IMG/VR virus record: IMGVR_UViG_3300025821_000003
Origin: a virus
Reading direction: 5' to 3' (one strand)
Length of the DNA: 31,926 nt
Numbering within the stretch: the stretch's first letter is position 1; every line of letters begins with the position of its first letter. Of this stretch, positions 2,255 through 4,379 are shown piece by piece. The notes beneath the pieces are model-generated. The model did no database searches, was not told the DNA's origin, and saw only the letters and a list, made by a program, of their open reading frames with translations. A program made the position numbers and the translations under genes.

Positions 2255-2520
2255 CCTTGCTTTGCTACCTTCCTAATCATTCTTTGATAATCCATTGTTA
2301 CACAGCTCAAACATAATTGCAACATCTCGTTATCTTCATCGCACAGCCACTGAGTTGCTTCTAATTTATTCGGACTGGTTGGCTTTAATTTAATGGCATC
2401 ATGTACTGCTTGTTTTAATATAGCTTGCAGCAACGGGACCATAGGAATATCAAATAGTGGATTGACTTCATTGTATAATTCTGCATCACTGGTATGGTCA
2501 TACTGGTATATCTGACTCAT
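2236..2520 (-). CDS. hypothetical protein (94 aa)
   Basis: AAGGTAG SD 9 nt upstream of the ATG; part of the leftward operon. Confidence 0.6.
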   Translation of the reverse strand: MSQIYQYDHTSDAELYNEVNPLFDIPMVPLLQAILKQAVHDAIKLKPTSPNKLEATQWLCDEDNEMLQLCLSCVTMDYQRMIRKVAKQGWNLSL

Positions 2521-2613
2521 GATTAATCTACCTTTTATTAATGATTTTAAGGATGCTCAAACGTACACTGTAGATCATAATAATATCTTGATTAACGAAC
2601 CAAGGAAACTATT

Positions 2614-2685
2614 ATGTGGACATCACCTAAAGCAACAGAAATGCGCTTCGGCTTTGAAGTTACAATGTACGTAATGAACAAGTAA
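2614..2685 (+). CDS. pqqA: PqqA-like peptide (PQQ precursor), 23 aa: MWTSPKATEMRFGFEVTMYVMNK
   Basis: AAGGAA SD 7 nt upstream. The length and the MW..P....R.G.EVT.Y pattern, with the E-x3-Y cross-link pair, match PqqA peptides as I recall them. Confidence 0.7.
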   Translation: MWTSPKATEMRFGFEVTMYVMNK

Positions 2686-2699
2686 TACATGTAATACAT
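2682..2699. repeat. perfect tandem 9-mer GTAATACAT x2 containing the palindrome TACATGTA
   Basis: Read directly; overlaps the pqqA-like stop codon. Confidence 0.8.
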
Positions 2700-2702
2700 A
2701 GT

Positions 2703-2731
2703 GGGGCTATTCGTTATGAACGCCTAGCCTC
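2703..2731. terminator. extended imperfect hairpin between the pqqA-like ORF and the erf-extension ORF (possible bidirectional terminator or processing site)
   Basis: GGGGCTA-tt-CGTT-atg-AACG-cc-TAGCCTC: 7 bp (one G.U) plus 4 bp stems; no clean U-tract. Confidence 0.35.
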
Positions 2732-2958
2732 ACCATTATCTCACCAAAGTTATACTTGACTTTCAGTGCTACCTCAGGACTCAATCCCTTAATAACAAAG
2801 TCGTTCACCTTGTGCAATGCTGTGATCTTTTCAACCTTAGCATCTGTCTCTAAACTACTGGCCTCAATCTTCTCGCCGATCTCTTTCAGCTTAGTAAAGA
2901 ATGCATCTTTGTCTTTACAAACTATTGGATCTTTGCCTGGAAGACTGAGGCTTATGCC
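2707..2958 (-). CDS. 83-codon open frame without a usable start codon, in the -1 frame relative to erf; candidate Erf C-terminal domain
   Basis: Hand translation: GISLSLPGKDPIVCKDKDAFFTKLKEIGEKIEASSLETDAKVEKITALHKVNDFVIKGLSPEVALKVKYNFGEIMVRLGVHNE*. A TAA lies just upstream in the same frame, and there is no ATG/GTG/TTG in the first 45 codons. Confidence 0.5.
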   Translation of the reverse strand, partial: GISLSLPGKDPIVCKDKDAFFTKLKEIGEKIEASSLETDAKVEKITALHKVNDFVIKGLSPEVALKVKYNFGEIMVRLGVHNE

Positions 2959-3353
2959 TTTTTTGGCTGCTCTGCCTTAACCGCAGCGTTGCCATCGTCA
3001 TCTTCTGGTGCGATGCCTGCTGTTGTCATTAAAGAGTAACGTCTGGCATAGGTCAATGCTGAGCCATATCCTTGCGCGTCATGCTTATTTGCAGGCACGT
3101 ACAGAATACCACCACTCATAGTTTCACCTGATTCATGCAACAGGATAGTTTCAATCTTGATTCCTGTGTCACAGTCGTGTGTCTTTTGAATCATAGATAA
3201 GCCATTGGTATGTAGTGCGTCAATGACTGCTTCGATACACCCATCTAAAGCAACGTACTTGCTTCTGAAGTGTGGGTTAGTTGATGTCTTCAATGCCGGG
3301 GCAAAGGCTTTTTGCGCCGCCAAGAATGCTTTTGCTATGGTATTAGTTTCCAT
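2952..3353 (-). CDS. erf: ERF-family single-strand annealing protein (short form, 133 aa)
   Basis: NPHFRSKYVALD...YGSALTYARRYSL motifs typical of the ERF superfamily; adjacent to the exonuclease. Confidence 0.8.
   Translation of the reverse strand: METNTIAKAFLAAQKAFAPALKTSTNPHFRSKYVALDGCIEAVIDALHTNGLSMIQKTHDCDTGIKIETILLHESGETMSGGILYVPANKHDAQGYGSALTYARRYSLMTTAGIAPEDDDGNAAVKAEQPKKA
2958..2964 (-). promoter_or_regulatory. A AAA AAG -1 ribosomal slippery heptamer in correct phase at the erf 3' end
   Basis: The minus strand reads CCA AAA AAG GCA TAA, so the heptamer is phased X XXY YYZ exactly as in E. coli dnaX. Confidence 0.5.
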
Positions 3354-3362
3354 ATAGATTCC

Positions 3363-4379
3363 TTATAGTGGTTTAATTTTAAGTTTACTTACTCGGATTG
3401 TACGTGCAGGCTTCGCAGGCACAATCTTCTCGGGTGTTGCCTTGTAGTTCAACTCACCCCATGTCACACGATATGGCCCGGCAATCAAATGTTTATGATC
3501 TCGCATTTCAGCCATAATCTTAGCTTGAGTTGATTCAATCTTCTCTTTCGTTTCGTCAATCAGTTTGTACATTAAGTCAATACTACCGACATCAGACGCC
3601 AAAGAATCATCTAATAGTGTTTCATCACTAGCCTGGTCATAAATGCTGGTAGCATCTGAAACCTTAGTAAATTCATACCATTCAGTCTCTTCGTTGTTAC
3701 GATACTTTTGCACTCTTCGGTCAAAGTCAATAGCACAATCCTTGATCTCTTGAATTAATGCCTCATTCCTTTTGAATACAAACATCCGTAATGTGATACC
3801 ACGATACAGGACACAGACTATACCCCAATTTACTGGCACGCCTGTCTCACTTTGTACTACATCCATCTGCGCTTGCAGTTGTATGCGCCCGCGATAGTCA
3901 GGCAGTTCTATTTCTTTCTCTTGAGATGTCAATTTAGCTTCGATAATGCCTAATCCTTCAAGCACAATCTCATCGTCATCTACAACAAAGATACCTTTTT
4001 CTGGGTCAACTGTGATAATTTGACCACTGGCTTCAGCTGTCGCGTCCAAGGATACACCTAATGGCACATCTTTGTGATAAAACGCTTTGCCAAAGTTAGT
4101 CACTGTGTTTTTCAGCCCAAGCCTCTGGACAGCCTCTTCAATGATAGGTACTTCAAACTGCGTCCCCCAATGCAATGCTTCAAAGTTCAATGGCTCACGC
4201 TCAAGACCTTTTACGGCATTGAAGGCATGCTTTAATGGATCGTTGGGAGTTTGGTAGGGGTTCCTACCCATTGCAGCAGCTACTTGCGAGCCACTCAGTA
4301 TGTCATCGCGCGTAAGCTTACCCTCGGCGATGTTTGGGGTCTGTTGCCCCTGGACAGTTGCGTTTTTTTTGTCATTCAT
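3363..4379 (-). CDS. YqaJ-type (lambda-Exo-like, PD-(D/E)XK) recombination exonuclease with a C-terminal extension
   Basis: LSGSQVAAAMGRNPYQTP N-terminal YqaJ signature; SLDA...IIEAKLT D...E-x-K catalytic layout. Confidence 0.8.
   Translation of the reverse strand: MNDKKNATVQGQQTPNIAEGKLTRDDILSGSQVAAAMGRNPYQTPNDPLKHAFNAVKGLEREPLNFEALHWGTQFEVPIIEEAVQRLGLKNTVTNFGKAFYHKDVPLGVSLDATAEASGQIITVDPEKGIFVVDDDEIVLEGLGIIEAKLTSQEKEIELPDYRGRIQLQAQMDVVQSETGVPVNWGIVCVLYRGITLRMFVFKRNEALIQEIKDCAIDFDRRVQKYRNNEETEWYEFTKVSDATSIYDQASDETLLDDSLASDVGSIDLMYKLIDETKEKIESTQAKIMAEMRDHKHLIAGPYRVTWGELNYKATPEKIVPAKPARTIRVSKLKIKPL

Follow-up and report, generated by a model that had tools for sequence, protein, structure and literature searches.

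One of the closest described counterparts of the recoding site considered here, which lies at the end of the erf gene in a 31,926-nt viral sequence (IMG/VR record IMGVR_UViG_3300025821_000003; the window below refers to this whole stretch of DNA), is found in the dnaX gene of Escherichia coli. The slippery heptamer, A_AAA_AAG, is identical in the two genes and is followed by a stem a few nucleotides downstream (6 nt in erf), and in both, the slip site is located between domains, so that one of the two isoforms is devoid of the C-terminal, partner-binding part. Both dnaX homologues and erf relatives come in two polarities that are interconverted by a single-nucleotide change (PMC5009743); the reversal of polarity in dnaX has been described in the review by Atkins, where it is linked to frameshifting efficiencies near 50% (PMC5009743). 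There are, however, several differences between the two systems. Whereas dnaX encodes a clamp-loader subunit, the gene in the window encodes a phage Erf annealing protein. The shifted product of the window erf is the long form, unlike in dnaX, where frame 0 yields the long product and the shift yields the short one, the same arrangement as in those erf relatives that have a long open reading frame (ORF). Furthermore, the compact hairpin of dnaX contrasts with the long-range stem of the window, which spans 91 nt, and the Shine-Dalgarno (SD)-like element on the 5′ side of the dnaX site has a counterpart in erf that is weak and inconsistent among relatives.

Among phage genes, the lambda-type tail assembly chaperone G/GT provides a conserved case of −1 frameshifting that takes place close to the 3′ end of a short ORF and, similar to the situation in erf, gives rise, through overlapping frames, to a short product and a C-terminally extended one. 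G/GT serves tail assembly, the lambda heptamer is G_GGA_AAG, and strong 3′ structure is usually absent, whereas erf has a function in recombination and carries A_AAA_AAG. In the orfA-orfAB genes of the IS3/IS911 type, A_AAA_AAG is combined with a downstream structure, and, like in erf, the shift is the only route to the fusion protein; these, however, are transposase genes, where the shift regulates transposition, whereas in erf, the shift would add a domain to a ring-forming recombinase.

On the protein side, the two-domain Erf proteins P22 Erf and Gp77 of phage SECPhi27 (Protein Data Bank [PDB] 9y6u) have N-terminal domains (N-domains) homologous to that of the window Erf, and both are encoded by single-frame genes without a reported frameshift. 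Residues 1-125 of Gp77 build a 24-mer ring, and the C-terminal region, which is peripheral and flexible, is dispensable for the ring-dependent activation of RAZR (PMC13017515). We found no report of an Erf frameshift in the open-access full text searched in PubMed Central and bioRxiv, and a −1 frameshift site is apparently new to the Erf protein family. As detailed below, comparison of the window with its relatives makes it highly probable that erf is decoded in two ways via programmed −1 ribosomal frameshifting at A_AAA_AAG. This reading had been put forward in a preliminary description of the window and is now backed by the heptamer, the −1 tail, and the 3′ stem of the relatives; neither this stem nor the existence of relatives with reversed polarity, both of which add strength to the case, figured in that description.

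The probable recoding site of erf and its conservation

The 0-frame erf ORF (2952..3353, minus strand) extends from ATG to TAA (2954..2952) and encodes a 133-aa protein of 14.2 kDa, here denoted Erf-S, which is predicted to consist of a ring-forming N-terminal domain that anneals single-stranded DNA and a disordered linker. Inspection of the sequence shows that its 3′ end reads CCA AAA AAG GCA TAA. The heptamer A_AAA_AAG (2964..2958, minus strand) is in the X_XXY_YYZ phase, with CC-A at 2964, AAA at 2963-2961, and AAG at 2960-2958, and corresponds to Lys131-Lys132 within the disordered interdomain linker. In the −1 frame, an upstream TAA stop (2979..2977, minus strand) restricts the 0/−1 overlap to 2976..2952, and the extension (2958..2707, minus strand) comprises 83 sense codons, from GGC at 2958 to the TAG at 2709..2707. 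No ATG, GTG, or TTG is present within the first 47 codons of this extension, the earliest being the TTG at 2817, codon 48. The predicted fusion, Erf-L, would join residues 1-132 of frame 0 to 83 residues of frame −1, resulting in a 215-aa protein of 23.2 kDa with the junction peptide ...QPKKGISLSLPGK... (which contains EQPKKGISLSL). The coordinates, phase, and ORF lengths given in the preliminary description, including the 133-aa ORF, the 83 open codons up to the TAG, and a fused product of about 215 aa, were all reproduced, and its statement that the first 45 codons lack a start proved slightly conservative.

Downstream of the heptamer, a 6-nt spacer, GCAUAA (2957..2952, minus strand), which holds the 0-frame stop UAA, separates the slip site from the stem described in the next section. 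Upstream, a weak SD-like AAGG (2978..2975, minus strand), a candidate stimulator, is located 10 nt 5′ of the heptamer. By raw count, an SD-like 4-mer is present at −12 to −17 in 9 of the 13 short-ORF loci examined and is missing from the other 4.

The window is 97.4% identical to the Methylophilales (OM43) phage MEP301 (MW452941), its sole close relative among 50,697 phage records. This isolate was sequenced independently and has an identical A6 run and two-frame layout; across the 83 tail codons, the two sequences differ at two sites, each of them the third position of a −1-frame codon. In the MEP301 record, the annotation of a 133-aa "ERF family protein" is followed by a gap of ~400 nt without annotation, and neither ERF nor frameshifting is mentioned in the paper describing this phage (PMC8024684). 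In addition, the noncoding DNA just past the tail stop codon of the window contains a 9-nt tandem duplication (~2684..2701; minus-strand reading ATGTATTACATGTATTAC), in which ATGTATTAC is present twice, compared to a single copy in MEP301; this is the only indel in the 540-nt alignment of the two sequences.

More distant relatives were collected from IMG/VR, JGI and other metagenomes, GTDB genomes, and targeted look-ups, yielding 220 classifiable erf loci. The 0-frame ORF is shorter than 150 aa in 35 of these, and every one of the 35 contains an in-phase A_AAA_AAG or A_AAA_AAA, separated by 0, 1, or 3 codons from the stop, which is TAA, TGA, or TAG. Where enough sequence is available, the −1 ORF invariably consists of 80-91 codons. 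Thus, the comparison of orthologous erf genes proposed in the preliminary description revealed the combination of the heptamer with the two-frame layout in all 35 short-ORF loci, which represent no fewer than about 18 different lineages. Identity among these loci is 66-99% for the N-domains and only about 20-60% for the tails; that such divergent tails are retained as intact ORFs is not the behavior of a dead remnant. The tail is offset by −1 from the erf ORF in the window and in all relatives with two frames, and an offset of +1 was never observed. The 0/−1 overlap in the relatives is 13-55 nt long, with the −1 frame closed upstream, and the heptamer always lies inside it.

The nucleotide sequence around the slip site is tightly constrained. 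Among 41 distinct junction contexts, the codon preceding the run is GTA, ATA, GCA, ACA, GGA, CCA, or TTA, with A as the wobble base in all 41, compared to a background of 0.37 for these amino acids across the genes concerned. AAA likewise serves as the first Lys codon in 41 of 41 contexts (AAA background, 0.45 of the Lys codons in these genes), and the base that follows A6 is G in 36 contexts (A_AAA_AAG), the run being A7 in the other 5. These contexts are related by descent, so that naive probabilities overstate the significance; the retention of the wobble A across seven different preceding codons points to selection acting on the nucleotide sequence, not on the protein.

Selection on the tail was assessed by counting the differences at each codon position of the −1 frame in close pairs of short-ORF loci. 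The counts at positions 1, 2, and 3 are 5, 2, and 10 for L033/L035; 2, 1, and 16 for L088/L094; and 0, 2, and 7 for L082/L083. Judged by this pattern of mainly third-position differences, the tail is translated in the −1 frame.

Two of the frameshift-type loci (L177 and L179) are located on short contigs assigned to the GTDB bin "uncultured Flavobacteriaceae" CAKZOO01. The other erf matches in named genomes come mostly from Betaproteobacteria, and the two contigs are probably mis-binned phage sequence rather than evidence of a Flavobacteriaceae host. In Salmonella phage vB_SenS_SB28 (MK947460, 33603..34239), the Erf match is divided into two pieces under two adjacent features annotated as "recombinase", and this may represent another split or interrupted gene in an unrelated phage.

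Structures 3′ of the heptamer and reversal of polarity

The 100 nt on the 3′ side of the heptamer fold with an energy of −34.2 kcal/mol (z = −5.42, with none of 200 shuffles as good). The candidate 3′ stimulator within this region is a 12-bp long-range stem, in which the 5′ arm GCCUCAGUCUUC (2951..2940, minus strand) pairs with the 3′ arm GAAGAUUGAGGC (2872..2861, minus strand) over a span of 91 nt. The stem starts 6 nt after the heptamer, that is, at +7, and the duplex alone accounts for −19 kcal/mol. A local hairpin was considered and rejected for the window, where the first 28-40 nt hold only a 4-bp GCCU/AGGC pairing that does not outperform shuffles (z = −0.1 to −0.8), and a permissive Rfam scan of 2700..3100 returned no family match, only two unrelated long noncoding RNA models scoring far below the gathering thresholds.

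A stem with the same spacer and span is present in L082-85, L086, L088, L094, L090, L101, L102, and L110. In an ungapped alignment of 11 sequences, standard pairs occupy 91.7% of the stem cells, compared to 36-50% in controls with the 3′ partners displaced by 1-3 columns, and the covariation score of the stem is 0.267, compared to 0.117 for shuffles, a level reached by none of 500 shuffles. The outermost pair is GC in six sequences, CG in four, and AU in one, and is broken in none; both of its bases occupy second codon positions, such that Ser/Arg, Thr/Ala, or His co-vary with Ala, Gly, or Val. Another pair changes from AU to UA. The 12-bp helix is the only consensus structure predicted by RNAalifold.

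Different structures are found at the same position in other relatives. A 9-bp hairpin at +7, with the 3′ arm much closer, is present in L024, L033, L035, L103, L105, L109, and L112, and a 5-bp hairpin, GCCUG-N7-CAGGC, also at +7, in L018, L106, L108, L129, L038, L017, and L091; no covariation was detected in either of these hairpin classes. The 6-nt spacer is common to all structural classes, and a stem at +7 is present in every short-ORF lineage examined, in which synthesis of the long form would require the shift.

The opposite polarity is apparent among the long-ORF relatives. In 18 of the 27 long single-ORF Erfs with an LxLPGK tail, an in-phase heptamer is located at the same KK of the linker, and in these 18, the −1 frame stops after 2-4 codons. 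The heptamer is missing from the other nine, eight of which share the linker motif NPLD. The tails of L091, which has A7 and is long in frame 0, and L018, which has A6 and is short in frame 0, are 79% identical, showing that a single A flips the polarity. The nearest relatives of the two parts of L091 are not the same: the N-domain is 81% identical to that of the window and 69% to that of L018, whereas the tail is 79% identical to that of L018 and 32% to that of the window. This discrepancy suggests that recombination in the immediate region of the linker and slip site has shuffled the two domains.

The tail and the architecture of Erf

The erf ORF is a confident member of the ERF family (Pfam PF04404; E = 1.4e-19, 71 bits vs. 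a cut-off of 25, residues 6-131), and a PDB profile search matched the N-domain to the Gp77 chain in the cryo-electron microscopy structure 9y6u (E = 8.9e-23). A Foldseek search also matched the N-domain to this chain (E = 4.6e-7, TM score of 0.71 on the target). When the conceptual 215-aa fusion was used as the query against the protein collection, many single-ORF Erf proteins of 214-247 aa were aligned to 88-98% of its length. The alignment is unbroken at the junction, where the window reads PKK-G-ISLSLPGKDP, compared to AKK-A-ISLSLPGKGE in P0002 and AKK-S-ITLEIPGKDP in P0019. The same query also recovered short Erfs of 132-146 aa, with 66-97% identity in the N-domain, each of which ends at or just after KK. 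By homology to the single-ORF relatives, which extends up to the KK junction, the 83-aa tail is the C-terminal domain of Erf. This agrees with the view in the preliminary description that the 133-aa form corresponds to the N-terminal core only: the C-terminal domain of single-ORF Erfs lies in the −1 tail, and the comparison with Erf C-terminal domains that had been suggested there came out positive, given the 88-98% coverage of the fusion by the single-ORF proteins.

In an AlphaFold2 (AF2) model of the fusion protein, built from a 60-sequence alignment (mean pLDDT 80.5), residues 1-117 form a confident N-domain, residues 118-131 form a disordered linker with pLDDT below 50, with the slip site at K131-K132, and residues 134-209 fold as a β-hairpin followed by four helices (pLDDT 75-91). 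In both Gp77 and the Erf-L model, a flexible linker connects the ring-forming N-domain to a helical C-terminal region at the periphery (PMC13017515; AF2). For the tail itself, no informative sequence similarity was detected in searches of solved structures, Pfam families, and PHROGs, and Foldseek matches of the whole fusion model are confined to the N-domains of Erf proteins. Two candidate relationships were rejected: the best Pfam match of the tail, DUF6281, reaches only E = 0.1, and the sole PDB profile matches, to the coronavirus HR1 coiled-coil, were judged to be compositional. A tail-profile search of the protein collection recovered stand-alone short ORFs only, with no other domain partners; many ocean contigs have catalog entries in which the tail figures by itself as a hypothetical protein, 46-88 aa in length.

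Directly upstream of erf, the window encodes a YqaJ-type exonuclease (3363..4379, minus strand; Pfam PF09588, E = 1.5e-6), which together with Erf makes up a two-component recombinase module, and the same exonuclease-erf gene order is found in relatives. By analogy with other annealing proteins, the C-terminal domain may bind the partner exonuclease and/or the single-stranded DNA-binding protein (SSB).

Alternative explanations, mechanism, and implications

Several other explanations of the two-frame arrangement have to be weighed against programmed ribosomal frameshifting. If RNA polymerase adds one A within the A6 run, some of the mRNAs would encode Erf-L in a single frame, and because a one-A insertion yields the same frame as a −1 shift, such transcriptional slippage would give the same products. 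Slippage of this type is documented for dnaX in Thermus (PMC5009743); the run is A7 in 5 of the 41 junction contexts, and selection for the wobble A lengthens it, which would help either mechanism. However, efficient transcriptional slippage in bacteria requires runs of about 9 A or T (PMC5009743), compared to A6 here, the exact ribosomal motif A_AAA_AAG is present in 36 of the 41 contexts, and a stem with a fixed 6-nt spacing and compensatory changes is a hallmark of ribosomal frameshifting, so that we consider slippage of the polymerase very unlikely. An equally low probability can be assigned to the possibility that ribosomes couple or re-initiate at the erf stop, or close to it, and synthesize the tail as a small protein of its own. 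In L085 (ATGA), L090 (GTGA), and L088/L094 (TTGA), gene calls of 80-82 aa do share a 4-nt overlap with this stop, and the cataloguing of the tail as stand-alone proteins on many contigs is compatible with such expression, but potential start codons (ATG, GTG, or TTG) are absent from the vicinity of the junction in the window, where the first one is codon 48, and in most other lineages. Moreover, in-frame Erf C-terminal domains are homologous to the tail as far as KK, and separate translation would leave the in-phase heptamer, the wobble A, and the +7 stem unexplained. Nor did a promoter and terminator scan of 2450..3450 identify a promoter-like site or any other feature on the minus strand that would make the tail a separate transcript.

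Under another scenario, a true frameshift mutation has occurred, so that the 133-aa Erf is the sole product, with the tail either decaying as a remnant or being phase-variable at the DNA level. A-runs are indel hot spots, A6 and A7 variants of opposite polarity exist among the relatives, and the deletion of the C-terminal region of Gp77 left RAZR activation unaffected, implying that the N-domain is autonomous for ring assembly (PMC13017515). Yet no short-ORF lineage for which the contig is long enough has lost the −1 ORF, which keeps its 80-91 codons although identity between tails can be as low as about 20-35%; the changes in the tail are concentrated at third positions of the −1 frame, and AF2 folds the tail confidently. 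Furthermore, A6 would be too short for frequent phase variation. Taken with these observations, a mutational origin appears very unlikely. The alternative offered in the preliminary description itself, namely, that a sequencing or assembly indel in the A6 run split one ordinary gene, draws on the error-prone nature of homopolymers on some platforms and on the existence of single-ORF relatives, but is excluded by MEP301, an isolate with the same A6 and layout at 97.4% identity, and by dozens of independent metagenome assemblies. The same arrangement recurs in 35 loci from independent samples and assemblers, with different flanks, and 48 blocks of the collection contain index entries for the short form P0026, leaving practically no room for an artifact.

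Certain observations weigh against programmed frameshifting or limit its reach. The window contains 10 copies of AAAAAAG, compared to 9.5 expected by chance, so that the motif carries no significance within a single genome, and the case rests on the comparison with relatives; the other sites checked against the ORF list (12065, 12080, 15400, 15506, and 16708) are all outside the X_XXY_YYZ phase. Start codons are present at the junction in three lineages (L085, ATG; L090, GTG; and L088/L094, TTG), where separate initiation is accordingly possible; given that these are the only three, with no ATG, GTG, or TTG at the junction of L024, L033, L035, L038, L082, L086, and L101, independent initiation cannot be the general mechanism. 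Both arms of the 12-bp stem are embedded in conserved peptide motifs (SLSLP and KIEA), such that much of the pairing could reflect protein constraint, and two-sided changes affect only 3 of the 12 pairs among sequences that are related. The largest long-ORF clade, with the linker VVKKPQ, has no conserved 3′ stem, which renders frameshifting in that clade uncertain and the dnaX-like reading of its genes tentative. Finally, the tail has no Pfam, PHROG, or meaningful PDB match that would point to a function.

For programmed ribosomal frameshifting, we propose a mechanism based on established knowledge of bacterial −1 frameshifting, such as that in dnaX. With its P and A sites occupied by tRNA-Lys paired to AAA and AAG, respectively, the ribosome would encounter the 12-bp stem, with its 5′ edge 6 nt downstream, at the mRNA entry channel, and in a fraction of ribosomes, both tRNAs would slip one base back, to AAA AAA. 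These ribosomes would read GGC AUA AGC and onward for 83 more codons to produce the 215-aa Erf-L, whereas those that do not slip would read GCA and stop at UAA, releasing the 133-aa Erf-S, which consists of the N-domain only. Erf-L would contain the same N-domain, followed by the linker and a mostly helical C-terminal domain of about 75 residues. In a host (Methylophilales FZCC2181/OM43) that read both AAA and AAG by means of one tRNA-Lys(UUU), A_AAA_AAG would be especially prone to shifting. No tRNA genes are carried by the phage, and about half of bacteria have a single tRNA-Lys (PMC5009743). We infer that it is the ribosome that slips, at an appreciable frequency, and that Erf-S and Erf-L assemble together into mixed rings, in which case the frameshift would set the number of ring subunits that bear the peripheral C-terminal domain.

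A further possibility, to which we give slightly less than even odds, is that Erf rings need a defined mix of subunits with and without the C-terminal domain and that, in this clade of marine phages, the mix is set by recoding. What leads to this idea is that the two polarities are one A apart, that at least two replacements of the 3′ arm of the stem have occurred where the long form is shift-dependent, and that the stimulator has been lost in one long-ORF clade.

Apart from the recoding site, the gap between the tail stop (2707) and the next minus-strand gene (2520) of the window contains a 23-aa ORF, MWTSPKATEMRFGFEVTMYVMNK, on the plus strand (2614..2685), which matches the Pfam family PqqA (PF08042; E = 2.1e-9, 37.6 bits, with a cut-off of 21.1) and has an 86% identical homologue in L084. 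PqqA is the precursor peptide of the cofactor PQQ, which is used by methanol dehydrogenases, and the OM43 host clade is methylotrophic; in light of this host biology, the ORF looks like a phage auxiliary metabolic gene. In MEP301, it is not annotated, and PQQ is not mentioned in the corresponding paper (PMC8024684).

With the frameshift recognized, an abundant group of marine phages regains a two-domain recombinase, for which the current annotation consists of the 133-aa ORF alone in MEP301 and of orphan hypothetical proteins for the tail elsewhere. For recoding biology, erf represents a well-sampled new gene family for A_AAA_AAG, with reversals of polarity and three 3′ structures at the same spacing, and offers material suited to tests of the coevolution of stimulators and efficiency. 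For annealing proteins, the arrangement implies that it matters how many C-terminal domains a ring carries, which bears on the recruitment of the exonuclease or SSB and also touches on the design of Erf-type proteins for recombineering. If rings indeed need a mix of subunits, erf would be a phage recombinase counterpart of the tau/gamma pair of dnaX, and its relatives would provide a natural series on how frameshift efficiency evolves with polarity.

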